From a plasmid, in sequence record NZ_CP015284.1: DNA of 64,000 nt, one strand, 5' to 3'. The notes beneath the pieces are model-generated. The model saw only the letters and a program-made list of their open reading frames with translations. It searched no databases and was not told the origin of the DNA. The stretch's first letter is position 1, and the number at the start of each line of letters is the position of its first letter. Positions 1 through 22,153 of the stretch are shown one piece after another. The position numbers and the translations under genes were made by a program.

Positions 1-33
1 AACACCACATTTGTCTGAAAGGAACTAACATAA

Positions 34-978
34 ATGACCTATACTCATCTTATCACAAACGAGCTTGTAATGATAGAGGCTTACTATCAAGAAGACATAA
101 AAGTTTCAGATATTGTGACTTCACTTGGCAGATCAAAACAGACAATCTACAATGTCATCAACTATCTGAAAGAGGGGCACTCTGCTTATGATTACTATAA
201 CCGATATAAAATCAATAAGAAACGCTGTGGCAGGAATAAAACCAGTCTTACGCAATCAGAAAAAGATTTTATCCAAACTCATTTAGAACAAAATTGGAGC
301 CTTGATGTCATTAAAGGAACTTATCCAGATAGGGTTGCTTGTTCTATGAGAACTCTCTATCGACTAGCAGACCATGGTATTCTAAAGAAAGAGGATCTCC
401 CTTGGAAAGGCAAAAGAAAACCAAATGGTCATAGCGAAAAACGAGGAAAACAAGCGTTGCGCAGAGATTTAAGTGAGAGAGCAGACAGTCATCCTAATTT
501 TAAGACGGGATTCGGTCATCTAGAAGGGGATACAATTGTGGGAGAAAAACACAAAAGTGCAGTCATTACCTTAGTAGAATGCTTCTCAAAAGCCATCATC
601 ACACTGAAAATCAATGGATGGAAAGCAAGTGATATTGAGGCCTCCATCAATCAATGGTTGTCTCAAGTTCCCAGTCATCTCTTTAAGTCGATAACTTTTG
701 ATTGTGGGAAAGAATTTTCTAATTGGAAATCTATTTCGAATGCACATGACATTGATATTTTCTTTGCGGATCCAGGATGTCCTGGTCAAAGAGGTCTCAA
801 TGAACATTCTAATGGCTTATTAAGACGAAATGGATTACCGAAACAGATGGTTTTTACTAATATTTCTCAAAAATATTTATCAGCTATAGCTGATAAAAGA
901 AATAGAATTTCTAGGAAATCATTGAATTATCAATCACCATACCAAGTTTTTCTGAGTTACTTGAAAAGTCTAACTTAA
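34..978 (+). CDS. IS30-family transposase (intact, 314 aa)
   Basis: N-terminal HTH followed by a DDE/rve-like domain (HLEGDTIVG...; FDCGKEF). The size and layout are typical of IS30-family transposases. Confidence 0.85.
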   Translation: MTYTHLITNELVMIEAYYQEDIKVSDIVTSLGRSKQTIYNVINYLKEGHSAYDYYNRYKINKKRCGRNKTSLTQSEKDFIQTHLEQNWSLDVIKGTYPDRVACSMRTLYRLADHGILKKEDLPWKGKRKPNGHSEKRGKQALRRDLSERADSHPNFKTGFGHLEGDTIVGEKHKSAVITLVECFSKAIITLKINGWKASDIEASINQWLSQVPSHLFKSITFDCGKEFSNWKSISNAHDIDIFFADPGCPGQRGLNEHSNGLLRRNGLPKQMVFTNISQKYLSAIADKRNRISRKSLNYQSPYQVFLSYLKSLT

Positions 979-1004
979 TTTAACAATTTAGGAATATAGG
1001 GTAT

Positions 1005-1278
1005 TATTAAGTGAAATCAATTTTTTTACAATAGATTCATACAGAGTCACTTATTCTTAAATAATGAAGGAGAACAGAAATGAAAAATATCTTATCTTTA
1101 CAACAACTTAAAGTAAAAGAAAATACTAAATTGATGGCTAAATCATCAAAAAGCATAAACTGTAAAAATAGTAGCCATGCTAGCTGGTTTGTTTGCTAGT
1201 CTCTAAAATTAAAATTACTTTTCATTTTTTATCTTAGTTTTATAGGAGGAATCAAATGAAGAAAATACTATCTTTACA
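1005..1278 (+). repeat. ~274-bp segment duplicated at 9956..10228 (~98% identity); covers the promoter/RBS region, peptide A and the start of the second peptide gene
   Basis: Direct comparison of the two stretches shows one 1-nt indel and a few substitutions. Confidence 0.85.
1080..1199 (+). CDS. small peptide A (39 aa, MKNILSLQQLKVKENTKLMAKSSKSINCKNSSHASWFVC); candidate pheromone/RiPP-type precursor
   Basis: A strong RBS (AAGGAGA) sits 6 nt upstream of the ATG. It has two paralogues that share a leader and a C-terminal Cys/Trp motif. It is below the 60-aa threshold of the ORF track. Confidence 0.4.
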   Translation: MKNILSLQQLKVKENTKLMAKSSKSINCKNSSHASWFVC

Positions 1279-1369
1279 GCAATTAAAAAAAACAGAAAGA
1301 GCTAAAACGAAATCTAGTATGAGTTTGAACTGTCAAATGAGTAGTAATAATAGCTGGTTTTTCTGCTAA
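1256..1369 (+). CDS. small peptide B (37 aa, MKKILSLQQLKKTERAKTKSSMSLNCQMSSNNSWFFC)
   Basis: RBS AGGAGGA. It is a paralogue of peptide A, sharing the MK(N/K)ILSLQQLK leader and the NCxxSSxxSWFxC tail. Confidence 0.4.
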   Translation: MKKILSLQQLKKTERAKTKSSMSLNCQMSSNNSWFFC

Positions 1370-1405
1370 AAAAGTATTTTAAATGTTTACCTAATAATAC
1401 CCTAA

Positions 1406-1432
1406 CTAGCCTTGAAAGTTTTTCAAGGCTAG
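1406..1432 (+). promoter_or_regulatory. perfect 11-bp inverted repeat (CTAGCCTTGAA-N5-TTCAAGGCTAG) between the peptide genes and the ABC transporter, with no T-tract
   Basis: Read directly from the sequence. It could be a readthrough-limiting hairpin or processing site, or an operator. Confidence 0.4.
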
Positions 1433-3175
1433 TTGCATAGTGAGAGTAATGATATGAAAAAAAATAATTATTTAGATATAGCTTATTTAAAAAAGTATCT
1501 ACCAAATAATTTTTATCTTTTCTTTTTGAGCTTACTAATACTAACTGGTACGATTGTCTCTTTAAGTATTCCAATTTTTATTATGGGAATAATTAATAAT
1601 ATGAAAAATGGGATTCATATCAGTAGTATATTAGTTGTTATTTCACTTTTCCTTATAGAATTATGCTTCACAGCAGTTTCGTATTATTTCATTAATAAAA
1701 CATCGGAAAGGATTGTAGAGCAGATACGTAACGAAATATGGATGCACATTTTAAAGTTGCCAGTCTCATATTTTGATAAAAATCGTTATGGGGCGGTTGT
1801 AACAAATATTATTCATGATACTGAAGAAATATTAGAATTTTTCAACAGTCAAATAAGCTCTTTTTTTACAAATGTTATATCTATAATTGGCTCTATTGTA
1901 ATTTTGTTCGTATTGGATTGGAAGTTAGCAATTTTATTAGGTGTGGCTGTTCCTATAGCTGTTCTGCTTACTAGTTATTTTGGTAATCAAGAATACACGA
2001 TATCAATGAGATATAGAGAAAGTATTGCGCACTTACAGAATAATCTTACATCTACTCTTTCAAAAATTAGGTTAGTAAAATCGACGACTTCGGAAGAGAC
2101 CGAGTTTCAGAAAGAGAGTGAATTATTTAATTCTTTATATAAGACTGGTGTAGAAGAAGGAAAAATATTGGGTATTCTTTCACCAATTTCTTCTATGGTA
2201 GTTATGCTACTCTTAGTTGTAACCTTTGGTTACGGTACCTACCGGGTATCAAATGGAACCCTATCGAGTGGAGCATTAGTTGCAAGTATTGTATATTTAT
2301 TTCAATTAGCTGATCCGTTTTCGCAAATTATTTCGTTTTTCACAAGCTATCAAAAATTTAGAGCCTCGGTCGTGAAGATAGGAGAATTACTTCAAGAACC
2401 GATTGAAGCTGATTTGGTTTTGGAGTTCAAACAGGCTAAATGTACAGATAGAGATGGTTTATTATTTAAAAATATCGATTTCTCTTATACAAAAGAAGAT
2501 GTCATATTTAATAACCTAGACTTTGAATTTCAATTGTACAAAACAACGGCCATTATTGGTAGGAGTGGAGTTGGAAAAACAACAATATTTTCATTGATAG
2601 AAAGATTTTATGTACCAACTCAAGGTAGTATCTTATTCCGCAATAAAGATATTGCCAGTATTCCTTTAAAAACTTGGCGGTCTAAAATTGCTTATTTATC
2701 GCAGGATATTGATTTGTCATACGGGACACTTTTAGAAAATTTAACTTACGGTATACACAATTATACGATGAACAAAGTAGATAACTTAGTTGAGGAATTT
2801 GGATTAAAATCATTTTTAGATAGTCTAGAAATGGGATATAATACTATCATTGGCGAGAAGGGAGTAACAATTTCGGGTGGTCAAAAGCAGCGAATTGCCC
2901 TTATTAGGGCAATATTGAAAGATGCTGATATTTACTTACTTGATGAGCCAACCTCAGCACTTGATGCACATACAGAAAAACTTGTTCAAATCACCTTAGA
3001 AAGATATTTGAAAGGAAAGACTGTCCTAGTTATAGCACATAGATTGAAAACAATTACCTCTGCAGATGAAATTGTTATTGTAAATAATAAGAAAATTGAA
3101 TATCACGGTACTCACAATGAATTATTAAATTCTTGTCACTTGTATAATCAGTTACTGGAGGATAGTGTACTATAA
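1433..3175 (+). CDS. ABC transporter, fused permease/ATP-binding exporter (ABCB-type half transporter); the true start is probably the ATG at 1454
   Basis: N-terminal TM region, then Walker A GRSGVGKTT, ABC signature LSGGQKQRIALIRA and Walker B IYLLDEPTSALD. There is no N-terminal C39 peptidase domain. Confidence 0.9.
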   Translation: MHSESNDMKKNNYLDIAYLKKYLPNNFYLFFLSLLILTGTIVSLSIPIFIMGIINNMKNGIHISSILVVISLFLIELCFTAVSYYFINKTSERIVEQIRNEIWMHILKLPVSYFDKNRYGAVVTNIIHDTEEILEFFNSQISSFFTNVISIIGSIVILFVLDWKLAILLGVAVPIAVLLTSYFGNQEYTISMRYRESIAHLQNNLTSTLSKIRLVKSTTSEETEFQKESELFNSLYKTGVEEGKILGILSPISSMVVMLLLVVTFGYGTYRVSNGTLSSGALVASIVYLFQLADPFSQIISFFTSYQKFRASVVKIGELLQEPIEADLVLEFKQAKCTDRDGLLFKNIDFSYTKEDVIFNNLDFEFQLYKTTAIIGRSGVGKTTIFSLIERFYVPTQGSILFRNKDIASIPLKTWRSKIAYLSQDIDLSYGTLLENLTYGIHNYTMNKVDNLVEEFGLKSFLDSLEMGYNTIIGEKGVTISGGQKQRIALIRAILKDADIYLLDEPTSALDAHTEKLVQITLERYLKGKTVLVIAHRLKTITSADEIVIVNNKKIEYHGTHNELLNSCHLYNQLLEDSVL

Positions 3176-4157
3176 GAGAAAGGAATATATATATTTACTA
3201 TTATGAACCATATAGTTCATTTAAAAGGATTTATTACTTTCTAAATTGGAATTTATATAAGGAATGCTATAAAAAATATGAAATCATTTTGTGAGTTGAG
3301 TCTTATTTTTTCAGGCTAGGAAACACCCCAATAACGAGGCGCCACAGAATTACCAAAGTCAGCTTGAGACTTGATTACGGATTTTCTCTTTATCCTAGAA
3401 TAAATGTAAGCGTCCAATAATAAAGTATCTCCCCCTTACCTAAACTCCCTACTAAACTATTACTATGGAGCATGTAACGACATTACAATAAATAAATCTG
3501 GGACAGGTCCATATCTTTTGCGGAAAAACAGGCTTAAGAAAAGGAATTGACTCCCTGGTTTTTTTGGTGAAATCACAATACGATTTAGTCCCATTTTCAA
3601 AATCTATCTTTATCTTTTGCAGTAGACGAAGTAATCGCTTCAAAGTACTTTACTGGGATGGTGAGGTGGGGTACTCTACAAGAGGTATGAAAATAGAAAA
3701 CTACCCGGCTAAGAGATGTTAACGAAGTTCGAGTTCTTACGGAAGAGGAAGTGGACTGGCTCATGAAGAGGGCTATTCACCGCAAAAAAATAGTACAAGA
3801 AGTCGTGTTCTCTATTGAGTCATGGATTTTGAACCAGTATAATAGAAAAATCAGTGTAACGTGGCTCTTTTCTACCATTTGTCAAGTATAATACGGTTTC
3901 TGATTCAACATTATTTATGAAAGTGTATGAAGGGAATTTATTGAGGAATAGTTCAAGCCGTTTTTTCTGACATTTGAGCATATAAAAACGACACCTTATC
4001 TGGTATTTTTTGAAACAAGGTGTTACAATAATACGGCATAGACAGCCTTATCGATTTTGGGTCAAAGAGTAATCGTAAAGTTTGTTATGCGTAATGAGGT
4101 AATACATTGTTCGAATGAGACGATGTATAGAGGCAATCGTATGTGGCTTAGTTGAAG

Positions 4158-5249
4158 CTATTGTCGATTGTCTTTTTCGTTTCTCATAGAAATCTGCGAT
4201 ATGGCAGGGATTGGTATGGCTAGCTGAAGCGATATTGTGAATACATTTGTACAGAATTTTTTTGCATAAGGATTCCCACGCTTAGTAATATGCTCTTGAC
4301 CTAGGAAATCTCCCGATTCATAGTGTTTGAGATCAATACCGATAAAAGCGTTGATTTGATTAGCAGACGTAAAGCGACGAATGTCTCCTAATTCACCAAT
4401 AACGCTTGTAGCCGTTGTCTCTGCGATGCCAGGAATAGAGAGAAGAATCTCATATTCAGGTAGAGGTTTAGCTAACTCTATCAACTGTTCTAAAACTTGT
4501 TCCCGACGGTTTGTCAACCTTATAAGTTCCTGTGCATTATACTTAACCTCTTCTATTATAGGAGAGGTTTTTGAAATGGCAGAATAAGATTGCTTTGCCA
4601 GTCCAACTAACTTCTCAGCCAAGTTATCTACTCTGTTCTCTGAAATGCGTTTAGAGGTTGACTGGCGAATAGTCTCTTTCAACTCAACTTCCGATAATTC
4701 CAGCACCCAATGCTTTGTTGGGAAGATGGACACGAGATTCCAATACTGCTCACCTGCAGGAGTAGATAGTAGAATCCCGATTTCTGGGAAGGCGACTTGA
4801 AGAACTTTGTGCAGCCTATTCTTCGTCCTTACGATATCCTCTGTCAGATTTTGGTAGAACCGGCTAAGATCATGCAAGTTTTGATAGACTTTTTCTTGAA
4901 CATAAGTTGGCTTACGGTTTAAAACGAATTGTGACGAAGCTAGTTTCTCTGCGTCAATTTTATCGGTTTTCCGGACTCGTAAGCTATCAAGTTGCTTTTT
5001 AGCTTCCAAAGGATTAAGACGTGTATAGTCATAGCTGTTTTCTTCTAGAAAAGCCTGAAGTCGGCGAGAGTAGACACCAGTAGCTTCGGAAATAATTTCG
5101 GGGTTACTCACGGTCTTTAGGTCCTTCAGTAGACGAGAAAATCCGATAATGTCATTAGACATAGTATAACCGTGAACCCTTTCACCATTCACAAAAATAG
5201 CAACTTCTGAGCTTGCTTTACTCACATCAATTCCAAATACTGTCCGCAT
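4158..5249 (-). CDS. IS110-family transposase (363 aa)
   Basis: N-terminal GIDVSK DEDD-type motif and a C-terminal IS116/IS110/IS902-type domain (IPGIAETTATSVIGELGDIRRF). Confidence 0.85.
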   Translation of the reverse strand: MRTVFGIDVSKASSEVAIFVNGERVHGYTMSNDIIGFSRLLKDLKTVSNPEIISEATGVYSRRLQAFLEENSYDYTRLNPLEAKKQLDSLRVRKTDKIDAEKLASSQFVLNRKPTYVQEKVYQNLHDLSRFYQNLTEDIVRTKNRLHKVLQVAFPEIGILLSTPAGEQYWNLVSIFPTKHWVLELSEVELKETIRQSTSKRISENRVDNLAEKLVGLAKQSYSAISKTSPIIEEVKYNAQELIRLTNRREQVLEQLIELAKPLPEYEILLSIPGIAETTATSVIGELGDIRRFTSANQINAFIGIDLKHYESGDFLGQEHITKRGNPYAKKFCTNVFTISLQLAIPIPAISQISMRNEKDNRQ

Positions 5250-5496
5250 TATGTTTACCTCTTTGTCTTGAACGATTCCTTATTTTAGTGATTTCATTTT
5301 CAATACTCGACGTCTAGCGTCCAACATACTTTGATAAAATTCCATCTAAAACAGGTGTCTTGCCAGTTTTTTATACGGCGTCTAGCGCCAAAAGAAGCCA
5401 CGACTTAACAAGACACCTCTACTTTAACACAAAGAAAAAGTAGTGAGTACTCACTCCCGTCGGAGATTTCTTCACTACTAATCTTAGTATGTTTTT

Positions 5497-6712
5497 TATA
5501 TTCAGAGTGATGAAAACACGCTTCCTAAAGTTAATAAAGTTTCTAAAACCGAATCCCAGACGTTTGATGTCTTTGATAAGCTTATTGGTGCCCTCCAATT
5601 TTGCATTTGAGTAATGTGTTTCTAGTGCGTTTTTGATGTATTGTTTGTGTCTAAGAAAGGTTCTAAAGACAGTTTGAAAGTAGTGATTGACCTTACTTAT
5701 ATTCTCCTCTATGAGTTCAAAAAACTCATCAATTCTTTTTTCTGAAAATAAAAAAGCAAAAACTTGTAGAGGTTATAGTCATTAGCGAGCTCTTTTGAAA
5801 AGTCCAATATCTTCACGGTGACTTCATTTGACTTAAAGTTTGACAAAAGGTCTTTGAGTGAAATGAGTTACAAGATAACTTACGGCTATCCTTTTGGAAG
5901 AGTCTCCAGTGATTTTTCAAGGCTCGGTAGGGTAGTGACTTCTTATCAAACTGATTCATAATGGCAATTCTTGTCTTCAAAAAGGCTCGACCAAGGTGTT
6001 GGATGATGTGGAAACGATCAATAATGATTTCGGCATTTGGGAAAAGTCTACGAGCTAGTGGGATATAGGCTCCTGACATATCCATTGTAATAAACTGCAC
6101 TTTTTGGCGAACCTTCAATGGATACTTCAAAAAGTGGTTTCGAATAGTGGTTTGACGGCGATTATCAAGGATGGTTATGAGTTTGTTGGTCTCATAGTTT
6201 TGTGCCACAAAAGCGAGTTCACCTTTCTTGAACCCAAACTCATCCCAAGACATAACAGCTGGGAGCTTGTCATAATGCTCCTTGAAAGTAAACTAGTCAA
6301 GCTTACGATAGACAGTGGACGTTGATACACGAAGTCTTCTGGCAATATCTGTTAGTGACACCTTTTCAGTAAGGAGCTGTGCAACTTTTTGCCGGACTAG
6401 ATTGGAGATTTGGCAGTTTTTCTCAACGATTGATGTCTTAGCTACCGTGACTCTCCTACAACTTTTACACTGGAAACGACGCTTTTTAAGACGTAATAGT
6501 GTAGGTGTTCCAGCTTGTTCAAGGAGAGAAATTTTAGAAGGCTTTTGAAAGTCATATGTGATCAACTTTCCTTGGCAGTGAGGACATGATGGTGCAGGGG
6601 AATCCAGTTTTGCATGAATTTCGATATGAGTATCAGTTTCAAAAACAAGAGAAATAATGATGTTAGGGTCTTTAATTCCGATTAATTCTGTGGTATTCTT
6701 AATAAGTCTCAT
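5497..6712 (-). pseudogene. ISL3-family transposase, frameshifted/degenerate copy; the left terminal hairpin/IR is retained to ~6833 and the right end is missing
   Basis: ORF fragments 6293..6712 and 5813..6253 are about 90% identical to the N-terminal and middle parts of the intact copy at 20592..21848. The reading frame is broken and the tail continues to ~5497 by DNA similarity. Confidence 0.8.
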
Positions 6713-6954
6713 AAGTTCTTCCTAATGATGGTTTGGTTGCTTTTCATTATAGTTCTTATGGGACTTTTTGTCTGCATTCAAAAAGCTCTATAATCTCTAC
6801 AGTGGTTTTACCCACTACAGAAATTATAGAGCCTGTTACACCTTGTTATTGAATACTTACGAATAAATAGCCAATTTTTTAAAATTATTGACAAAAAAAT
6901 ATTATTGTCTTACAATAATATCGAAGAAAGAATTATTGTAAGGCAATAATTGAG

Positions 6955-7485
6955 GTGTTTAACATGAAAAAAATATTAAAAATAACAAGTCATCTCTTGT
7001 CTCTAATGAGGTATCCTGTTTGGGGAATAAATTTCCTGTTATTTTTAGGAATAGTAGGAGTTTTATTTGGGGGACAGAGAAGTCATTGGATGTTTACATT
7101 TGACTATGGTGATTCCATTATTGATGTTCCAATAATTTTTCCATTAGTTATTCTTATATTGTTGATTATAATTTTTGTTTTTATTATCCAGTTATTAAAA
7201 ATTTGGAGTAAGTTGTTATTTGGTTTCAGTAAGGGTCAATTTTTTAGTGGTGAGAATCTTAAAAAATTAAAAAGATCGATGATATTTCTAGTTTTGGTGA
7301 CTGCTATTCAATTATTGATTAATCTAATATTCAACTATTTAAGTGTAGAAAATGTTAGTGAAGTATTTGATTTTTCGTTGAAAAATTACGTGGTACATAC
7401 TGTATTCATATTATTTAACGCTATATTGATTATCGTATTGGAAAAAGGAAAAAATATTCAAAAAGAAAATGAGGACTTTATTTAA
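6955..7485 (+). CDS. small polytopic membrane protein (DUF2975-like)
   Basis: It has four hydrophobic segments. It overlaps the downstream XRE regulator gene, which is a common two-gene module. Confidence 0.5.
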   Translation: MFNMKKILKITSHLLSLMRYPVWGINFLLFLGIVGVLFGGQRSHWMFTFDYGDSIIDVPIIFPLVILILLIIIFVFIIQLLKIWSKLLFGFSKGQFFSGENLKKLKRSMIFLVLVTAIQLLINLIFNYLSVENVSEVFDFSLKNYVVHTVFILFNAILIIVLEKGKNIQKENEDFI

Positions 7486-7714
7486 TGTAATGGATAAGAT
7501 ACAAATAAATTTAGAAAAGTTAATTAAAGAAAAGAAACTTACATCTAAAGAAGTTGCAAAAAGAATAAATATCACAGAGGCAAATCTATCAATTTTGAAA
7601 ACGGGAAAAGCAAAAGGCATACGTTTCACTACACTCTTACGAATATGTAGAGCACTTGATTGTCAACCTGGTGATATTTTAGAGTATGTTAGGAGTGAAA
7701 ACCATGAAGATTAA
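7469..7714 (+). CDS. XRE-family HTH transcriptional regulator (81 aa)
   Basis: HTH motif LTSKEVAKRINITEANLSILKTGK. It overlaps the end of the upstream membrane-protein gene (7469 < 7485). Confidence 0.7.
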   Translation: MRTLFNVMDKIQINLEKLIKEKKLTSKEVAKRINITEANLSILKTGKAKGIRFTTLLRICRALDCQPGDILEYVRSENHED

Positions 7715-8156
7715 AAAAGTAATATTATGTATGATCTTTACTCTTGCAAGCATTATGCTAGTTTCATGTAGTATAAATGAAACAGTAAAAGATGTTACAC
7801 AAGAAATAGAACAACAAATATCCAAAGATGATACAGATAATTTAGGTATAACTTATATTACGGAACAAAAAGAAGGGGAGACTCTAAAAGCATCATTTAC
7901 TGATTTTGATGGGGTTATTTATGTAATTAGTACTAAAGAGAATATTGAGTCAATAAAGAATTCAGATTTTAGTTTGGATAATAAAAATTTCGAAGATGTT
8001 AAAACTGATTCCTACGATGATTTCAATATTCGTTATAAAAATAAAACTTATTTTTCGGTTAAAAAACTTGATATAGAGTCAAATAATATTACTTCATTAA
8101 AATTTAATTCAGATTATTCAAAGAGTATTTTATTAGTTTATAGAACAAAAAACTAG
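7686..8156 (+). CDS. putative lipoprotein (signal peptide with lipobox LVSC)
   Basis: N-terminus MKIKKVILCMIFTLASIMLVSCS. It overlaps the upstream regulator gene (7686 < 7714). Confidence 0.55.
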   Translation: MLGVKTMKIKKVILCMIFTLASIMLVSCSINETVKDVTQEIEQQISKDDTDNLGITYITEQKEGETLKASFTDFDGVIYVISTKENIESIKNSDFSLDNKNFEDVKTDSYDDFNIRYKNKTYFSVKKLDIESNNITSLKFNSDYSKSILLVYRTKN

Positions 8157-10030
8157 TTTGTAGTCATAACTAGGGGGGTAGTAGTACTATGGCGAATATT
8201 TCGCTTATAGTGCTTTTGTGTACGACGTCATGTCGTACATCTGTGGTGAAATTCCCACGGTTCACTTGTTACGGGCGAAACAAATAACCCAATAGAGACT
8301 CCTAAGTTTGACGATTGTGATCTTGAGGAGAGGGGAAGTGATAGCAAAATTGTGGCTCTACAAACAAAATCAGATATAGGTAGATGAGGAAATCTAAAGT
8401 GTTCTTGCCAAAGTTTAGTTGAGCAGTCGTATGCCGAACGACATGTACGGTGGTAGTAGAGGCGCTACAAGTTGGCCTCTACTCTATTTTAGTGATTTTA
8501 GTCCGTTTTATTCCGCAGGAGAAAAAAACACTAGGTGCTAGAGGTAATTGAAAAAGTCAGTCACAGCAAATATTATTCATATAATATTTGCTGTGAAGAA
8601 AAGTACAAACATAAAATCGAATGATAGACAATTTCTGAGTTTTATAGGAAATATATCATTCGGTTTTTACTAACTGAAATGCTAATGCTTTTACAATTTT
8701 CAGTTGACTAGGCAAGTGCTGACTGGTTTATAGCCTTTTACAAGATGCACGATTGATGGGTGGTTGTTATTTTTTTCTGGAAGAGACAGGAAAAATCAAA
8801 ATCTTACTGATTTTCTCAAATTTTAACAATAAGAAATCATATGATATCAATTGACATCAATGTTTTTTAATAAAAGATTTAAAGCGATTTTGTTAATTAT
8901 GTTAATATAGATTTTTGCCCCAAAATATCATGGCCAAATTATTAATGGACGATATAAAGCAAGTATCGGTCATAATAATTTGAGATTTGTGTGAACGAAA
9001 AGGTGTTATCATACATGAAGCTAATGCTTGTTCAGATTATATTCGCATATTAGTCAGTATATCATCCAAATTAAGTGTTTTAGGTTTTATGGGCTACTTA
9101 AAAGGTAAAAGTTGATTGATGATTTTTGGCAAATGTGTGAATTTTAAATACAAATAAGGGAACAGAAAATTTTGGTGTAGTGGTTACTTATTATGGTCGC
9201 AATCAAAAAGTGATTGCAGAATATATACAAAATCAATTGCAAGATGACAGGGTAGCTGACCAACTGACCTTGCTTGAGACAGTTGATCCGTTTACAAGCG
9301 AAGCAAATAAAAAAGTAGGATAGTGGTGCGCAAGGAAGCTACTTTGGGTGAGGTTGTGTCCTAGGTCGGTAAGAGTGACCTTTCTCGATATCTTTAGAAT
9401 CTTGTCCATTTCTCAGAAACAGTCTTGGCTAAGAGATGTTTTTTGGGGTTATTTGGGCGTAATAGAACTTTTTTCAAAAATCATACCAAGGATAACTTTA
9501 TAGACATGGGGTGCCGGTGCCTTATTGAGTGGGTGACAACCACCTTATCCTTTAGTAGAATGGGCCTCTTAACGCTCTTTGAAATAGCTGTAGGCGCTTA
9601 TACTGCCCAATGTTTTTGAAAGTCGTTCTATATGGATATCCACTCTATCTGAAAGAGTTAAGTGTTTATATTTCATAGCTTCTTCTCTAGCAGAAAAGCT
9701 TCAGACTTGATACCACCACAAAACACGATTCATGTTAACTTCCGATTTTGAAGATAATGTGGAACTTAATATGAAAAATAACTCGATGAGGTAATTTTTT
9801 ATTTTACTTTCCAAATTTAAAAAAGATATGATATAATATGTAAGAAGAAAGCGCTATCACTACCCTGAAATGAGGTGAAATTACTTTCCGATATGAAAAT
9901 AATATTCAATAATTACAATATTCACTAACATATTGGGTATTCGATTTTTCTAATTTATTAAGTGAAATTAATTCTTTTACAATAGATTTATACAGAGTCA
10001 CTTATTCTTAAATAATGAAGGAGAACAGAA

Positions 10031-10150
10031 ATGAAAAATATCTTATCTTTACAACAACTTAAAGTAAAAGAAAATACTAAATTGATGGCTAAATCATCAA
10101 AAAGTATGAATTGTAAAAATAGTAGCCATGCTAGCTGGTTTGTTTGCTAG
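10031..10150 (+). CDS. small peptide A' (39 aa, a copy of peptide A with I26M)
   Basis: It lies inside the duplicated segment and keeps the same RBS. Confidence 0.4.
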   Translation: MKNILSLQQLKVKENTKLMAKSSKSMNCKNSSHASWFVC

Positions 10151-10205
10151 TCTCTAAAATTAAATTACTTTTCATTTTTTATCTTAGTTTTATAGGAGGA
10201 ATCAA

Positions 10206-10343
10206 ATGAAGAAAATACTATCTTTACAAACGTTGATTTCTACTGAAAAAGCAACGTTGTGCAATGCCTCCAATCTTAGTGTGACGTGTAAAAAACAAAG
10301 TTCAATTAGCTTGTTTTTATGTGTTAAAACTACGGATAAATAG
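10206..10343 (+). CDS. small peptide C (45 aa, MKKILSLQTLISTEKATLCNASNLSVTCKKQSSISLFLCVKTTDK)
   Basis: RBS AGGAGGA. It shares the MKKILSLQ leader, and its tail has multiple Cys and Asn/Ser residues. Confidence 0.35.
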   Translation: MKKILSLQTLISTEKATLCNASNLSVTCKKQSSISLFLCVKTTDK

Positions 10344-10392
10344 CTGATTGCAATAAGACTTTGATTTATTGTTTAAGGTTGATTTAAAACTT

Positions 10393-10437
10393 AACAACTA
10401 TAAAAATTGTAAATTAATTTTTATAGTTGTTTTTTTG
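10393..10437 (+). terminator. rho-independent terminator (16-bp perfect stem AACAACTATAAAAATT/AATTTTTATAGTTGTT followed by a T-run) after peptide C
   Basis: Read directly from the sequence. Confidence 0.7.
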
Positions 10438-10592
10438 TATTACCTCTAACCTTCGTACTAAGCTATTGCCTTCCAAATAAGAAGTGATAAGTACAATAAG
10501 AGTCCTTCCATTACTTTGGAGTCTTGGAGTGGTTTATCAACATCCCTTGAGGAAGATGACTTTTTGGAAGACAAACGTCAAGTAACCCTTGT

Positions 10593-11315
10593 TCAACCTG
10601 GAGAAACAAGTGTTAAAGCGTTTGGTATTGATATTTCCCTATCTGAAGTGAAGGTTTTAAGAGCCTCTTTTGGAAATAGCTTACAAAGTTGTTCGATGGC
10701 TGAAAACATGGATTTGGCTGTTCTGTCTGGTATCTTGAAAGCTAGGTAAAAGTGCGTTTTTCGCTCTAGAAAGGTCGCTAAACAGCCCTTGCTTTTGCCT
10801 CTGGAAGACACCACAGTATCGCTCTCCCAGTGACCAAAGGTCTCACGATTCCTGACCTCTTTAGGACGTTTGGCAATCGACGTACCAATCCTAAAGGTTC
10901 CACGTGTTTCTTTGGGTTGTCGAGTTTTTCCTTTACGACGAAGGACGCTTAAATCCAGATCAATCAAACCAGCATAGAGCCAGTTATAGATAGTTTTAAA
11001 AGCTACCATTGCCTTTTGTTCAAGCTGATAGCGGCCACAAATCTGTTCCGGCGATCAGGAGGATTTTAAACCGTCCTCAATTTCCTTTTTCAACTTTGGT
11101 GTCAAACGAGACTTCCGACCTTTTTGCTTAGCCCTGTGGTCATACTGTTCCTGTGCTAAGGCTGCGGAATAACCATTTTGGTATCGTCTTAACTCTCTTG
11201 AAATAGTAGACTTATGGACGCCAAGTTTATTTGTAATTTGGCAAGGTTTCAAACCTAATTCCAAGTAGGTTTCTATCTTTATTCGGTCGGTTATGGTAAG
11301 ATGGGAGTAGCTCAT
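10593..11315 (-). pseudogene. IS30-family transposase, degenerate (HTH fragment 11055..11315 and DDE fragment 10593..11009 in different frames)
   Basis: The N-terminal fragment has an HTH (KLGVHKSTISRELRR). The C-terminal fragment has the DDE region (HWESDTVV...). It is a different IS30 member from the one at 34..978. Confidence 0.7.
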
Positions 11316-11714
11316 AGTTTTTCCTCGGGTTCTGTTTGTGTGGTTACTTACAGTTTACACCAATGAAACGCTATGAGTTTTTTTGTTGCACTTGACTTGA
11401 CAATTAGGGATTTTTCTTTAAATTCAATACGAAGTATAATAAGAACAGTTCAAATATTTATGTAGCTATTTTAAGTGATGGAGGTAAAGAAATTAAAATC
11501 AATGAACTTGATTCAAGTGCTAAAGACGATAATTATGTTTATAATTTCACTGGTAAAGCCGAATAGAACAGAAACTTTTTACTCTTATAATGCAAAAGAA
11601 GCCCTTAGAAGAAAAACTTCCGAGAGCTTCTTTTTTAGTCTGAGATTAACCATAGGTTAGTCTTTTTATTGTTCATTGAGCAATAGTTATAATCGCAATA
11701 AAACCAATGCTACA

Positions 11715-12180
11715 TAAATACAACCTTACCAAAGATGGTGAAGTCGTCCTTTTCAGAAAGGGTATTTGGTACCTTGCTAGAATTTAGTGAGTTTAGAAGA
11801 ATGTCACCATTATCTCTATTTTGACTCACCTTCATTACGTGGTACTGACACTTTAGCTGCACGATGCAGATATCGCCTGTTCGAAGGACGGAGTCTTTCA
11901 TGACAAATATTACTTCATCATCGAAGAAACTAGGTTCCAAGGAATCACCAACAACCTTAAACGCAATATCATGTACCGGAATAGGAACAGGATAGTCAAG
12001 GCAGTCAACTGGAACCTCTGATAGTTCAAATCCATGTGCGTTGGCTCTAGCATAAATACTGACTCTTTTGGTTGGTCGTTCATCTTGTCCAACTAGTTGT
12101 TTTCTATGGTCTTTTTCTCTGATTTCTTTAGAGATATGCTGATTATCTAATCGTTTTTCCAGTATTTAAAGTGAGTTGGT
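11715..12180 (-). pseudogene. truncated duplicate of the CI-like repressor gene (C-terminal S24 peptidase part only, frameshifted)
   Basis: About 90% DNA identity to 14525..14990. ORFs 11710..11940 and 11910..12092 carry the peptidase-domain residues but lack the HTH. Confidence 0.65.
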
Positions 12181-13085
12181 TTAAGTCTAGTGTACCAGCT
12201 TACAGGCAAGATATTTGTTTAGAACAAAATAAAAACTAGGGGGGAACCCTAGTTAGCAGTAGACGTTCATACAAGAGTATTATGTAAATAAGAATGTTAG
12301 AGTGAAGTCTCTATGATAGAAGCTAATTAGAGACAAAGGGAAGATTAATTCATAGTTTGATGTATGTGTCTACTACTGAGATTATAACAGTGCGGTTAGA
12401 ATTTTTCAACAAGTTTTGTTAAAAGTCAAATTCTCAACTTAGGTAAGATAACATTTCAGATTAAGCTAAAAATTTTTTGAGACAAGTAAAATTGTAATTA
12501 GGGATGCCTCAAAGCTGTTCATATTTAGTAATTTAACAGCATTTTAGATTCTGATGATGAATTGATAATTAAATTTAAGTGGCTAAATAATTACTATGCA
12601 TATGAGAAAATAATATAATTAGATTGTATGACGATTGTCATTTAGATTATATTGTGCTATATTACTTCTTAGATAGTTTATCTATGTATCATCTCCCAAG
12701 GTAGATGGGTAAACTGTGGAATATTAATGCAGAAAAACGCAGGAGTTACTCTTGCGTGCATTAGGGAGGGATGTCGATTGTTTCTTGGTGAACAATTTTA
12801 TTGAGCAAGTTGTGAATAACAACGATACTTAAATATTTAAAATAATTTCTTGAAGGATGAAAAATAACCTAATAGAAGAATATTTTGTCATAGTTGAAAG
12901 TTTATTTGAAAATAAAAAACAGCTCTTTTCACAATGGAAGGAGCCAGACTTTTATAGATAGCTTTTATTATATGGATTTGATATACTCTTATATGTAGAA
13001 AAGTGATAGACGGTGGCTTTCAATTATTAGAGAGGAGTGATGCCTATGGGCAAACATTCAAAATCTAGTAGAGAGGAGAGCCGTT

Positions 13086-13190
13086 TTGACAGCGTTCGAG
13101 ATTGTGCAAACCATTCTAGGCTTTGGTAGTTTTACTATCGCTCTAATTGGATTATGCTACAAACTCTTTAAAGACGATGACAAAAAATAA
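13086..13190 (+). CDS. putative holin-like toxin (34 aa, (M)TAFEIVQTILGFGSFTIALIGLCYKLFKDDDKK) with a TTG start
   Basis: RBS AGGAGA 5 nt upstream. It has a single TM helix and a charged C-terminal tail, typical of the small 'holin-like toxin' family of Firmicutes. The ORF track missed it. Confidence 0.5.
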   Translation: MTAFEIVQTILGFGSFTIALIGLCYKLFKDDDKK

Positions 13191-13268
13191 TCCGTCCCCA
13201 CTTTTGGCGAAGTAAGACGGATTATTTTCGTTTAAAACTAGCCACCGTCTTTTAAACGGCTCTACATG

Positions 13269-13299
13269 GAAGTTGAGTGACTGCTCAACTTCTTTTTTT
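13269..13299 (+). terminator. rho-independent terminator (GAAGTTGAG-N6-CTCAACTTC followed by T7)
   Basis: Read directly from the sequence, downstream of the small toxin ORF. Confidence 0.6.
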
Positions 13300-13621
13300 C
13301 TACCACAATTTTATCAGAATAAACAATTTAAGTCAATTCGAAATATACAGATATTGATAAACTGACAGTACCAATGATAAATGAGTATATAGAAAAAGTA
13401 GTAGTCCATGAAGCAACAGGGGGAAGAAAAGGAAAAGATAGAAAACAACAAGTCGATGTTTACTTTAATTTTATAGGCAACTGTCAAGTGCTATGAAAAG
13501 CGAGCATAGAAAAAATGACTTAAAAATGGTAAAATATTATTAGTTAATTTAGACTAACTTGCAATTAGCTTTCATCTTTAAGGAATAATGTGAAATGCTA
13601 AAAGCGGAGAGAGTTTAAAAT

Positions 13622-14263
13622 TTGTTGTTGGGAAGAGTTTTGCTGGTGAGTGATAAGAGTAACAAAAAATTTTGGGATAAATTCGCCAAGTTGTATGCTC
13701 CTTTTATGAAGAAGGATAAAGGTGTTTATGATAAAGTTTGCGGATACATAAACCCCTATTTGAGTAAGGATATGAATGTACTTGAACTTGCTTGTGGTTC
13801 AGGTCAATTATCCTTTAACCTTTCAAAATATACGAAAAGTTGGATTGCAACTGATTTTTCTAAACAAATGATTTTTGAAGCAAGAAAACATGGAGAATAC
13901 GAGAACCTTGTCTTTGAAATAGCTGATGCTACTTCATTGATTTATACAGATGAGAAATTTGATTGTGTAGTAATAGCTAATGCACTTCATATTATGCCCG
14001 AGCCTGACAAGGCAATGAAAGAAATATATAGGGTATTAAAACCTAATGGTACTTTGTTTGCTCCCACTTTTTTATGGAAAGAGGAAAAACAAAGTAAATT
14101 CAAAAAACGGCTGATGTCTATTGTAGGGTTTAAGATGTATAAAGAATGGGATAAAAAGCAATTTGAAGAATTTATCCATGAATATGGATTTTCAGTAGCT
14201 GAAATGAAATTGGTAAATGGAGGTCTTGCACCAGTTGGTGTAATGATTGCATATAAAAAGTAA
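13622..14263 (+). CDS. class I SAM-dependent methyltransferase (small-molecule type)
   Basis: Motif I LELACGSGQLSFNL, plus acidic and motif II-like segments (VFEIADA, VIANALHIMPEP). Confidence 0.75.
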   Translation: MLLGRVLLVSDKSNKKFWDKFAKLYAPFMKKDKGVYDKVCGYINPYLSKDMNVLELACGSGQLSFNLSKYTKSWIATDFSKQMIFEARKHGEYENLVFEIADATSLIYTDEKFDCVVIANALHIMPEPDKAMKEIYRVLKPNGTLFAPTFLWKEEKQSKFKKRLMSIVGFKMYKEWDKKQFEEFIHEYGFSVAEMKLVNGGLAPVGVMIAYKK

Positions 14264-16615: not shown

Positions 16616-16751
16616 ATTTTAGAATTAAATATAGAATGAATAAAGGGGAAAAGGATATAAAAACATATCCTTTTTTTGTGTCTTCATAAACAAGGTGGGT
16701 GTCACTGGGTTATAGAAGGTATATGAGTTTTAGTATAATGGTTCCAAAAAA

Positions 16752-18203
16752 TTGAAGAGAAGGACTAGACAAATGACAAGAATACCAGGTAATAAAAAAT
16801 GGTTACAAAATATTGCTAAGAAAATCAATCTTCCACTTTATCCGAAGAAAAAATTTAATGGGGAAGAAGTCACACTCTTGCCTGATGGGACAGTCCGATT
16901 ATCTGAAACAGGAGAAAAGCCTTCTGCTGAAGCACTGGAAGCCTATCAAGACTTCGTTAAGAAATTCAATGAAAGACTACGCCGTTTTGGGGTAAGAACA
17001 ATCGATGGAAAAGCAACATTGAATACTGTCTCTCGATTTTCGGACGACTATTATAAGAAGTATGCCTCGACACCATTACTGAAACAAGTTTACCCAAACA
17101 ATGACTTTCCTTTCCATTTGCAACTTCAAGAAGATTACATCATTCAAATCAACTATAGTCAAGAAACGGATTATGAGTTAATTAGTAAGCAACTAAACCA
17201 GTTAGATATGGATATCCTACTATTTATAGCTACTTTCCGAAATGTTCAACTACTACAAATTTCAAGGGAGTTTGGTTTACCGATTCCTAAAATCAAACCA
17301 CATCTCAAACGACTCAGAGAGTTTTACTTAGTTCAAGAGTGGGAGTTCGAACGTGAAGATACTCCAGGGGCTCTTGCGACAAGCTATTCTATTTACAGTC
17401 ATGGAACAATGTTGCTCTTACTAGCAAATAAGATCACTAGAAACTTCACTTATAAATGGAAAGATATCCTTCGGGAAGAAGATAACTACTCTCCTATTCG
17501 ATACTGGAAGGTCGTAGATGCCTATCAGAACTTCAAATTTAATCAAAACTATGCCTATTTTGTTCCTACGTCAAACCTGGAGAAGTTCACGTATACAGTG
17601 ACAAAGACACAAGAAAAGAGTGAGGGGACAAGTCCTCTTTCTGGTATGGAGAAACGAAAATCAGAATTACAATCCAAAAAGGCGAAGAAGAAAGAGCGTA
17701 CGTATACAGTCCATGTTCCTAGATATCTTTTTATCGGTCAGTTAGCTCTCAATAAAAAGGAAGATGACGGTACAAAGAATCTTTTTGATGTGTATCCTTA
17801 TATTACTAACGTTGGTGATACCAGCGATCTTGATAAATTGCTCAATGTCTTTAAACACTTTGGACGTTTCGAGGAGGGTTTAGATGAAGAAGGCAACAAA
17901 CGTTATCTACTGATTATCGTTGATAATTTTGACGACATTCAAGAAATTGAAGACAAGTATATGCTTATTGAAAATGGTGGCTATAAGAACCTTAATAACA
18001 TTATTTTCCTCAACCTAGAGCTTGCTGCTGAAGAAGGAATTGACAAGTCTCTTGTTGTTATCAGAAGTCAAAATACAACTGATGGTAGTCGCGTGGCTAA
18101 ATACATGCCTTTTAGAATGAATGAAGCGTTTAATGAGCGTCCACTAATCAAAGACTCTGAACTAGAAGAGTTAAATCAAGAAGAAGGTGATACTGATGCT
18201 TAA
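16752..18203 (+). CDS. hypothetical protein (483 aa); speculative replication/primase-like role
   Basis: A long ORF with its own RBS region. No motif recognised. Confidence 0.45.
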   Translation: MKRRTRQMTRIPGNKKWLQNIAKKINLPLYPKKKFNGEEVTLLPDGTVRLSETGEKPSAEALEAYQDFVKKFNERLRRFGVRTIDGKATLNTVSRFSDDYYKKYASTPLLKQVYPNNDFPFHLQLQEDYIIQINYSQETDYELISKQLNQLDMDILLFIATFRNVQLLQISREFGLPIPKIKPHLKRLREFYLVQEWEFEREDTPGALATSYSIYSHGTMLLLLANKITRNFTYKWKDILREEDNYSPIRYWKVVDAYQNFKFNQNYAYFVPTSNLEKFTYTVTKTQEKSEGTSPLSGMEKRKSELQSKKAKKKERTYTVHVPRYLFIGQLALNKKEDDGTKNLFDVYPYITNVGDTSDLDKLLNVFKHFGRFEEGLDEEGNKRYLLIIVDNFDDIQEIEDKYMLIENGGYKNLNNIIFLNLELAAEEGIDKSLVVIRSQNTTDGSRVAKYMPFRMNEAFNERPLIKDSELEELNQEEGDTDA

Positions 18204-22065: not shown

Positions 22066-22098
22066 TCTATTCGGAAAACAGTTATTTGTTGAATACAC
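22066..22098. promoter_or_regulatory. candidate dif (difSL-like) site immediately upstream of xerS
   Basis: TATTCGGAAAACAGTTATTTGTTGAATA resembles the streptococcal/lactococcal difSL (TTCCGAAAAA...TTTCTTGAA) in both arms. XerS-type systems have dif next to xerS. Confidence 0.35.
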
Positions 22099-22153
22099 AT
22101 GTTAGCTATGATAAACTACTACTAACAAGAAAATTGTTAGATTTGAGGCTAAT

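Follow-up and report, generated by a model that had tools for sequence, protein, structure and literature searches.

The segment 9930-10437 of the window (64,000 nt of sequence record NZ_CP015284.1) is very probably the second precursor transcription unit (A' and C) of a Streptococcus salivarius class III lanthipeptide cluster, a unit that goes back to an old duplication, has since been gene-converted and was joined by insertion sequences (IS) only later. It comprises one promoter, the intact precursor genes A' (39 aa) and C (45 aa) and, as terminator, a hairpin with a T7 tract, and its opening ~285 nt are ~98% identical to positions 994-1278 (98% over the promoter-to-leader segment). The cassette belongs to a streptococcal class III cluster already annotated in RefSeq, of which it is an old component under selection. 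The kind is known, and this member of it ordinary. An attractive but wrong story, in which IS elements made the second cassette, can be corrected; of wider, if modest, interest is the evolutionary side, the gene conversion between the two units.

Table 1. Features of the window discussed in the text (positions in nt from the start of the window).
Feature	Position	Strand	Description
IS30-family insertion sequence	1..993	+	transposase ORF 34-978 (intact, 314 aa, NF033563 230 bits); right inverted repeat 967-993
Repeat copy 1	994..1278	+	promoter region, ribosome-binding site, precursor A, spacer, opening 23 nt of precursor B
Precursor A, 39 aa	1080..1199	+	NF038159 55.6 bits (cutoff 30); RefSeq WP_198166467 'class III lanthipeptide [S. 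salivarius]'
Precursor B, 37 aa	1256..1369	+	NF038159 42.6 bits; WP_198166468
Hairpin, 15 bp, no T-run	1403..1435	+	between B and exporter gene; -20.5 kcal/mol, z = -4.0
ABC exporter, 573 aa	1454..3175	+	ABC_membrane and ABC_tran, without peptidase domain; NCBI ARI60670
IS110 transposase	4158-5249	-	between exporter and DUF2975 gene
Split ISL3 transposase	5813-6253, 6293-6712	-	between exporter and DUF2975 gene
DUF2975 membrane protein	6964-7485	+	Pfam
HTH_26 regulator	7469-7714	+	Pfam
Lipoprotein, 150 aa	7704-8156	+	lipobox LVSC; signal sequence read off translation
Non-coding spacer of IS debris, 1.77 kb	8157..9929	.	IS200 remnant and questionable lanKC vestige
IS200 Y1-transposase remnant	~8935-9320	+	Y1_Tnp E 3e-12, stop-masked frame
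Repeat copy 2	9930..10228	+	promoter region (14-nt insertion 9942-9955), ribosome-binding site, A', spacer, opening 23 nt of C
Precursor A', 39 aa	10031..10150	+	NF038159 53.5 bits; WP_198166469
Precursor C, 45 aa	10206..10343	+	NF038159 50.2 bits; WP_198166470
Intrinsic-terminator-like hairpin, 17 bp, loop 5, and T7	10393..10436	+	fold energy versus shuffles
Remnant of a different IS30-family element	10593..11315	-	frameshifted into 138-aa and 86-aa ORFs, 3' third of transposase missing; NF033563 profile positions 1-199 of 267

Organization of the cluster

The cluster of S. salivarius runs from a trypsin-like protease through LanKC, IS30, A, B, the ABC exporter, IS110 and ISL3, DUF2975, the HTH regulator, the lipoprotein and a stretch of IS debris to A', C and the terminator. 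The protease and LanKC synthetase genes adjoin the left side of the window; no match to LanKC was obtained with tblastn inside it, the enzyme lying just beyond the edge. In metagenome contig L014, an intact LanKC (854 aa; WP_084871559; NF038151 784 bits, cutoff 575) is located directly left of the window start, its gene ending 91 nt before position 1, and the protein displays the RamC_N, Pkinase and LANC_like domains of a lyase-kinase-cyclase. Because the gene falls beyond the window, near-identical contigs of this sort (99.96% identity between L014 and window positions 1-13175) are the grounds for assigning it to this genome. The three genes at 6964..8156 keep their order in all relatives, and in the IS-free relatives IS110 and ISL3 are absent from the interval between the exporter and DUF2975 genes. 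A search of positions 1-14000 against Rfam returned no family at gathering score except three unrelated sRNAs, and no structured family in 8157-8443. No copy of the cluster turned up in the GTDB species representative of S. salivarius, which makes it accessory; a LanKC scan of genome contigs yielded three loci only, S. salivarius itself not among them.

Precursor peptides

On sequence criteria, namely family, leader, core motifs and LanKC-cluster context, A, B, A' and C are class III lanthipeptide precursors (LanA). The class III leader is defined by a motif of the (I/L)(L/F)xLQ type. Such a conserved hydrophobic motif (PMC11330476) is represented by ILSLQ, which occupies residues 4-8 in all four peptides and in all orthologues. 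The four sequences score above the cutoff of the curated NCBIfam model NF038159 ('lanthi_III_b'), whose 'III_b' label designates a precursor family and should not be confused with the enzyme subclass called 'class III-b' in PMC11330476, and RefSeq already names all four small ORFs class III lanthipeptides, for S. salivarius. A and A' are distinguished by a single amino-acid difference, I26M. The core of A contains two ring motifs of the Ser-x-x-Ser-x(2-3)-Cys type, S22xxS25xxC28 and S32xxS35xxxC39, which are found in register in B and C and are kept in four other genomes. C is a paralogue of B: the two have the leader and both motifs in common, to which C adds a 6-residue tail. Orthologues from the four other genomes are 84-86% identical for B and 73-82% identical (aa) for C, and the ring-forming Ser and Cys residues are conserved across all orthologues of the latter. 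The initial annotation regarded C as a different, Cys-rich peptide; different it is, but 'Cys-rich' overstates a content of 3 Cys among its 45 amino acids. With A, B and C, three conserved core peptides are defined from common oral and gut streptococci.

The repeat and its two copies

The reported duplication of 274 bp (promoter, ribosome-binding site and peptide A) is borne out by alignment: 1004-1278 matches 9955-10228 as a direct repeat (226 nt at 94% ungapped and 73 nt at 97%, with one 1-nt indel), and homology covers 994-1278 versus 9930-10228 once the 14-nt insertion in the second copy is allowed for. The repeat takes in the promoter region, the ribosome-binding site, the whole of peptide A, the intergenic spacer and the initial ~8 codons of the second gene. 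Beyond these codons identity between B and C collapses, in keeping with the earlier observation that the copies diverge inside the second peptide gene. The probability that the repeat is an assembly artefact, a caveat attached to the original claim, is negligible. Nothing beyond the general risk posed by repeats speaks for it, and both copies are present in the window's arrangement in 14 retrieved metagenome loci (L005-L012, L014-L017, L019 and one further); moreover, the copies differ at 5 positions and by an indel, and A and A' have separate RefSeq accessions.

An old duplication homogenised by gene conversion

The same A'-C cassette is carried by S. sanguinis BCC16R and SK115R, by Streptococcus sp. 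MGYG-HGUT-00580 (a vestibularis-like MAG; MGYG hereafter) and by S. pantholopis, all without IS in the cluster; the duplication is therefore old and was not made by IS30, contrary to the IS-mediated origin proposed initially. In these four genomes the cassette is convergent to the main operon. In L020, L021, L022 and L001 (S. pantholopis) alike, the series A, B, ABC, DUF2975, HTH, p150 is followed by C and A', both encoded on the other strand, and by a lanKC remnant that spans aa 768-854, with no IS inside the cluster; L002 and L004 display the convergent arrangement too. The protease and LanKC genes are retained in L020-L022. The lanKC 3' remnant before the cassette is evident in the four genomes (65-69% aa identity, E 1e-28 to 1e-31); compared with the intact lanKC 3' end it is 100% identical in S. 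sanguinis, 69% in MGYG and nearly erased in S. salivarius, where blastn gives weak 71-nt and 58-nt matches to the lanKC 3' end at ~9795-9863, upstream of A' (E 3.5e-4 and 7e-3, in small search spaces). The unit evidently originated through an ancient segmental duplication of a lanKC-3'/promoter/A/second-precursor segment, before S. salivarius, S. sanguinis and S. pantholopis split. The second genes evidently diverged into B and C, both held by purifying selection (dN/dS: A 0.01-0.03, B 0.02-0.11, C 0.07-0.18), and the IS elements arrived after the duplication. The data do not show the diversification of the peptide repertoire that had been envisaged: A, B and C are conserved as a set and are under purifying selection.

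Within genomes, the shared segment is 98% identical in S. salivarius and 88% in MGYG, and it reaches 100% in the two S. sanguinis strains (a perfect inverted repeat of 587 nt) and in S. pantholopis (over 201 nt); these values of 88-100% compare with 65-80% between species. Likewise, the synonymous divergence of A amounts to 0.7-1.6 between species, versus near-identity of A and A' within a genome, and the K24R replacement (an A-to-G change) is present in both copies of S. sanguinis SK115R and in neither copy of BCC16R. Because identity within genomes exceeds identity between species although the duplication predates speciation, gene conversion between the units has evidently homogenised the promoter, A and the opening ~8 codons of the second gene repeatedly. 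All genomes examined agree on where the shared stretch stops, namely around codon 8 of the second gene. This represents a clean case in which conversion homogenises a promoter, a first precursor and a leader, leaving two divergent cores untouched.

Taken alone, the perfect repeats of 587 nt in S. sanguinis and 201 nt in S. pantholopis look young. That the repeats are young duplications, rather than one old duplication with conversion, is nevertheless highly unlikely: C is orthologous across species (73-82% aa) and always directly follows A' at a constant position within the cluster; all genomes share one codon of the second gene as the 3' limit of the repeat, whereas its 5' limit differs among them; and the range of the lanKC remnant, from identical to nearly erased, fits one old duplication with patchy conversion. 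In addition, to copy one locus onto the other amounts by definition to gene conversion. A more functional reading holds that 'promoter plus A' stands before B and C by design, either because A+B and A+C form two-component lanthipeptides or because the leader-coding module serves as a recombination handle; we consider it quite unlikely. Under the recombination-handle reading, a natural fusion of A' and C through deletion, present in one metagenome contig (L013), would exemplify the swapping or fusing of cores.

Insertion sequences around the cassette

The initial annotation placed one copy beside an intact IS30 (34..978) and the other beside a degenerate one (10593..11315), with which the NF033563 profile agrees. 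The left element lies between lanKC and A, with its left end and left inverted repeat ~55 nt outside the window start. Its two inverted repeats agree at 22/27 positions, with 'AT' at 994-995 as the 2-bp target duplication; the insertion point is TATATAAT^ATAGGG, as deduced from the IS-free intergenic region of L020/L021, which corresponds to the empty site. With inverted repeats and a target duplication of its own, the left IS30 is a simple later insertion. The two transposases share 25-32% aa identity and are thus different members of the family that cannot form a composite transposon or a recombination pair.

That an IS30-mediated duplication or composite-transposon shuffling created the second cassette in this genome is extremely unlikely. 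The model draws on the IS30-family transposase gene adjoining each copy, on the density of other IS elements in the region (IS110, ISL3, IS200) and on an orientation of the cassette unlike that in other species. Against these points, four other genomes whose clusters are free of IS contain the duplication, C and the lanKC 3' remnant included, and the intact empty site argues against a secondary loss of IS from the IS-free arrangements. The right-hand element is a truncated remnant on the opposite strand, and the left one has its own simple insertion site. The hallmarks of a composite transposon are lacking: the IS on the two sides are not the same, the duplication is not absent from IS-less relatives, and no target duplication surrounds the unit. 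Inverted repeats and target duplications, which had been suggested as a check, were found at the left IS30, but none bracket the cassette, at whose borders a search for inverted or direct repeats retrieved only 20-29-mers at chance level.

The proposal of IS-driven shuffling stands weakly, in one respect: the cassette, convergent in the four other genomes, is directly oriented in S. salivarius, with 1.8 kb of IS debris between it and the operon, and this flip looks like an IS-associated event. The positions of the integrase and ISL3 relative to L002 require more than one event on the path from the convergent to the direct arrangement.

Expression signals

The promoter hexamers are weak (-10 TACAAT, poor -35). 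A consensus promoter scan returned 50 sites against 41 ± 8 in shuffled sequence, that is, no excess, so that it is conservation which identifies the promoter. The promoters share a conserved block, GTATT-N-AAG-GAAATCAAT. No regulator site was identified at the promoters; co-regulation of both units via the duplicated promoter is plausible. A possible role for the hairpin that separates B from the exporter gene is attenuation or control of mRNA stability.

The second unit had been credited with a strong terminator. The hairpin is indeed present (stem 10393-10409/10415-10431, T7 at 10430-10436, 50 nt past the stop codon of C), and the 106-nt fold reaches -24.6 kcal/mol (z = -4.6), with 0/200 shuffles folding as well. 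'Strong' is generous, however, for an AT-rich stem with only 2 G-C pairs, and a consensus terminator scanner did not list the hairpin, 2 pairs being below its minimum of 3. Homology with the C/p150 intergenic region of the relatives was not detectable, and each species carries its own hairpin.

Proposed function and possible decay

A' and C would be transcribed from the duplicated promoter up to the hairpin and T7 tract. The ILSLQ leader shared by the precursors may be recognised in trans by the single LanKC, which, following the logic of the cluster, would dehydrate Ser and close two rings per peptide. After cleavage of the leader, for which the trypsin-like protein may be responsible, the peptides would leave via the single ABC exporter. 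No transporter gene follows C, as the initial annotation had remarked; lacking its own exporter, the second unit must rely on the main operon, in line with the idea of one shared exporter.

The S. salivarius cluster is riddled with IS (IS30; IS110 and ISL3) and might be silent or affected by polarity. Clusters of this type do decay, given that in S. pantholopis no intact LanKC was found within 10 kb and the exporter is frameshifted. It is conceivable, though unlikely, that the S. salivarius cassette, perhaps the whole cluster, is a silent, decaying relic in which intact ORFs reflect recency and not function. Three IS insertions within the cluster, 1.8 kb of debris beside the cassette, the accessory status of the cluster, the visible decay in S. 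pantholopis, the L013 fusion and a contig (L018) without the DUF2975-to-C part are compatible with such a fate. Conversely, every ORF of the cluster is intact, LanKC (854 aa) included, and identical copies are widespread among contigs (126 with C, 336 with A' and 102 with LanKC); the IS insertions are all intergenic; both units retain the promoter block, ribosome-binding sites and terminator; and purifying selection is seen between species.

Comparison with known systems

A search of the literature on LanKC in S. salivarius and on class III lanthipeptides in S. sanguinis found no description of the cluster, its products or their activities. In multi-precursor lanthipeptide clusters such as that of labyrinthopeptin (labA1/labA2), one synthetase serves several precursors with a conserved leader and different cores. 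The S. salivarius precursors differ from this type in being distributed over two promoter-bearing units that are gene-converted up to the leader of the second gene.

Closer in taxonomy is PneKC/PneA of Streptococcus pneumoniae ('class III-b'), for which a second precursor, one amino acid different, is located apart from the synthetase (PMC11330476), a situation that parallels A and A' (I26M). Nevertheless, PneKC is distant from the S. salivarius enzyme (255 bits, the best-scoring match lying over the N-terminal half), the accessory genes of the pneumoniae cluster are different (S9 peptidase, heterodimeric ABC transporter, permease), and no third, divergent core has been reported for it.

The whole length of the S. 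salivarius LanKC can be aligned with ThurKC of Bacillus thuringiensis ('class III-a', PDB 8SAO) and TherKC of Thermoactinomyces sp. ('class III-c', PDB 9WJ0; PMC13504147), at 527 and 540 bits, respectively, a comparison that leaves its subclass as III-a or III-c. The three enzymes have the lyase-kinase-cyclase architecture in common. Their substrates are also alike, as the S. salivarius precursors share the hydrophobic leader motif with ThurA and TherA and their first ring motif, S-x-x-S-x-x-C, resembles the STxSNxC of III-a and III-c substrates. The TherKC cluster combines two nearly identical precursor genes with an ABC transporter (PMC13504147). In contrast to these systems from other genera, S. 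salivarius possesses three distinct cores (A, B and C), with A present twice, an exporter made of a single polypeptide and not a heterodimer, a protease that is trypsin-like and not an M16 metalloprotease, and a second precursor unit that is a separate transcription unit.

Organization of the cluster

All four small open reading frames (A, B, A′ and C) score above the curated cutoff of NCBIfam NF038159, the class III lanthipeptide precursor family. Exact-sequence look-ups showed that RefSeq already holds their products as 'class III lanthipeptide [Streptococcus salivarius]' (WP_198166467 to WP_198166470), the adjoining exporter, the IS30 and a LanKC synthetase being ARI60670, ARI60669 and ARI60668, respectively. 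In metagenome contig L014, which is 99.96% identical to positions 1-13175, the window opens 91 nt downstream of the lanKC stop codon; that LanKC (854 aa; NF038151, 784 bits) is intact and is itself preceded by a 226-aa trypsin-like protein with TAAHC and GMSGGP motifs. The gene order is protease, LanKC, (IS30), A, B, ABC exporter, (IS110, split ISL3), DUF2975 membrane protein, HTH_26 regulator, 150-aa lipoprotein (lipobox LVSC), 1.8 kb of debris that includes an IS200 remnant, A′, C, terminator and IS30-family remnant.

Features of the two precursor units and the IS30-family elements beside them
Feature	Position	Location and remarks
IS30 transposase, intact	34-978	beside copy 1
Upstream block (~85 nt) and ribosome-binding site		start of each repeat copy
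Precursor A, 39 aa	1080-1199	copy 1
Spacer with second ribosome-binding site, then first ~8 codons of second ORF		end of each repeat copy
Precursor B, 37 aa	1256-1369	copy 1, past divergence point
ABC exporter gene	1454-3175	copy 1, after B and hairpin
Precursor A′, 39 aa	10031-10150	copy 2; single difference from A, I26M
Precursor C, 45 aa	10206-10343	copy 2, past divergence point
Hairpin, 17-bp stem, running into T7	10393-10436	3′ of C
IS30-family remnant, frameshifted, 3′-truncated	10593-11315	minus strand, beside copy 2

Alignment of 1004-1278 with 9955-10228, ~8.95 kb apart, confirmed the direct repeat reported in the initial annotation (226 nt at 94% ungapped and 73 nt at 97%, with one 1-nt indel); homology starts at 994 and 9930 once a 14-nt insertion at 9942-9955 is allowed for, and the copies are 98% identical over the segment that runs from the promoter into the second gene's leader. 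The divergence point does lie inside that gene, B and C differing beyond the shared codons. C, described as a different Cys-rich peptide, indeed differs from B in sequence, but its leader (ILSLQ) is that of A and B and both Ser-x-x-Ser-x(2-3)-Cys motifs are in register with theirs; it adds a six-residue tail and one Cys, the latter not conserved in S. pantholopis. Judged by these shared features, C is a relative of A and B and not an unrelated peptide. The strong terminator assigned to the 3′ side of C was found as a hairpin (-24.6 kcal/mol for a 106-nt fold, z = -4.6); however, its stem is AT-rich, with only 2 G-C pairs by count, and it was absent from the list of a consensus terminator scanner. 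A second hairpin (15 bp, 1403-1435, z = -4.0), which lacks a T-run, separates B from the exporter start codon and resembles attenuator or stability hairpins found after lanA genes.

The promoter block common to both units combines a conserved TA(T/C)AAT with a weak -35, a pattern suggestive of activator dependence, and the two units are probably co-regulated through it. Without an enzyme or exporter of their own, A′ and C must rely on those of the main operon, and we infer that they use its LanKC and ABC exporter, along with a protease; the sharing of one exporter by two units with the same promoter, as first proposed, is supported. At 980-1007, a -35-like TTAACA in the right inverted repeat of IS30, spaced by 16 nt from a flanking TATTAT (10/12 consensus match), makes a candidate outward hybrid promoter that could drive A-B-ABC. 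The IS load of the S. salivarius cluster makes a silent cluster a realistic, though rather unlikely, reading.

Origin of the second unit

The second copy had been attributed to IS-mediated duplication. An IS30-family element does lie beside each copy, and the left one is a simple insertion: it has 27-nt inverted repeats (22/27 matching; right repeat, 967-993), 2 bp ('AT') are duplicated, and relatives show the unoccupied site TATATAAT^ATAGGG. The two transposases share only 25-32% identity, and are therefore different elements that could not have operated as a pair.

Loci in S. pantholopis and metagenome contigs were reached through homologues of C. Scanning species-representative genomes with LanKC added two chromosomes of S. 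sanguinis (strains BCC16R and SK115R) and a Streptococcus metagenome-assembled genome (MAG), one A-type peptide of which carries an S. vestibularis name in NCBI. In the MAG and both S. sanguinis strains, the protease, LanKC, A, B, ABC, DUF2975, HTH and lipoprotein genes occupy one strand, while C and A′, followed by a lanKC remnant, lie convergently on the other, and no IS elements are present inside the cluster. The remnant comprises the last 83-87 codons (65-69% amino acid identity, E 1e-28 to 1e-31), which shows that the second unit is an inverted segmental duplication of the lanKC 3′ end, promoter, A and second precursor. S. pantholopis has the same layout from A to the lanKC remnant but lacks an intact LanKC within 10 kb. 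The same duplicated unit thus occurs in IS-free clusters, ruling out IS-mediated duplication; on this comparison, the duplication long predates the arrival of IS elements in S. salivarius.

The S. salivarius cassette is direct, in contrast to the convergent one of its relatives, and lies 1.77 kb of debris away from the lipoprotein gene; its lanKC remnant is nearly erased, giving weak matches only. We read this arrangement as a derived, IS-era rearrangement; no repeats were found at the borders of the A′-C cassette. The spacer upstream of A′ holds an IS200-type Y1 transposase pseudogene with multiple stops and frameshifts (8935-9320).

Concerted evolution of A and A′

Within genomes, the shared segment is 98% identical in S. 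salivarius, 88% in the vestibularis-like MAG, 100% over 201 nt in S. pantholopis and 100% in both S. sanguinis strains, in which the perfect inverted repeat measures 587 nt, 254 nt of them from lanKC; between species, identity is 65-80%. Between species, A has a synonymous divergence of 0.7-1.6, against next to none for the A-A′ pair (dN/dS: A, 0.01-0.03; B, 0.02-0.11; C, 0.07-0.18). Since C is orthologous and always directly follows A′, the duplication is old, and the near-identity of A and A′ is therefore due to recurrent gene conversion. K24R (A-to-G) is found in both copies of S. sanguinis SK115R and in neither copy of BCC16R. On its 3′ side the shared stretch stops near codon 8 of the second gene in all the genomes; on its 5′ side the limit varies. 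The leader sequences are able to recombine, as seen in a single metagenome contig (L013, 1050-1330) encoding a 45-aa A′/C chimera (P0001, MKNILSLQ + TLISTEK...): a ~150-175-nt deletion between shared leader-coding sequences joined window position 10054 to ~10229, fusing the A′ start to the C core with loss of the A′ core.

The S. sanguinis repeat (12306-12892 versus 16749-17335, 0 mismatches, identical coordinates in both strains' loci, L021 and L022) covers the lanKC 3′ end, promoter, A and the beginning of the second gene. A crossover between its two arms would invert the ~3.9-kb B-to-C segment; both strains have the same isomer. The S. pantholopis locus (CP014699.1, 1912234-1932374) is a decaying version, in which the exporter is frameshifted and the A of the main operon has been stripped of its promoter and ribosome-binding-site block; it nonetheless keeps all four precursor genes, the lanKC 3′ remnant and identical A and A′.

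Strain variation and surroundings

An index look-up placed the exact C sequence in 140 assembly-collection blocks, and cross-strain comparison recovered both copies in the window arrangement in 14 retrieved metagenome loci (L005-L012, L014-L017, L019 and one further), on which ground an assembly artefact was rejected. The S. salivarius locus is structurally polymorphic: an Abi_2/IS110/IS3 block lies, by strain, downstream of the C-side IS30-family remnant or upstream of the protease-LanKC genes (L005, L006, L009 and L012 versus L014-L017), and L018 lacks the entire DUF2975-to-C part.

The gap separating the ISL3 remnant from the DUF2975 gene holds a match to the Streptococcus sRNA Srn266 of Rfam (6724-6833, 91.6 bits) that overlaps a 20-bp terminator-like hairpin (6785-6832, minus strand). 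Right after the lipoprotein gene, a repeated element of 287 nt (8157-8443) is 94.8% identical to Streptococcus sp. FDAARGOS_192 (NZ_CP020429.2), with no annotated feature at that match and no Rfam family match. Rfam matches to rli28 (12972-13155, plus) and RatA antitoxin RNA (13220-13311, minus), beside a methyltransferase gene, suggest a type I toxin-antitoxin locus. A phage-type integrase gene (22066-23223) is 94% identical in DNA to L002:3-1160 and L003:5504-6661, two vestibularis-like contigs in which it lies a few kb from the A′-C cassette; the lanthipeptide genes there are only 77-79% identical, suggesting that a mobile element close to the cluster is shared. The 23000-62000 region resembles an integrative conjugative element or a variable island, encoding a UmuC-like polymerase, topoisomerase, TraG-like ATPase, peptidoglycan hydrolase (Amidase_5 + M23), ClpB-like AAA protein, MmeI-type restriction-modification enzyme, antigen I/II-family adhesin and LPXTG protein.

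Comparison with known systems

A literature search found no description of this S. salivarius cluster. It is an already auto-annotated class III lanthipeptide cluster, boundary-limited gene conversion being its sole mildly unusual aspect. Full-length alignments of its LanKC score 540 bits against TherKC (PDB 9WJ0, 'class III-c') and 527 bits against ThurKC (PDB 8SAO, 'class III-a'), whereas the alignment with PneKC of S. pneumoniae ('class III-b') is far poorer, at 255 bits. Near-identical pairs of precursor genes have been described in published clusters (PMC13504147, PMC11330476), and the pne cluster has a second precursor copy in a separate region, with one residue different (PMC11330476); a split, near-duplicate precursor is thus a known feature of such clusters.
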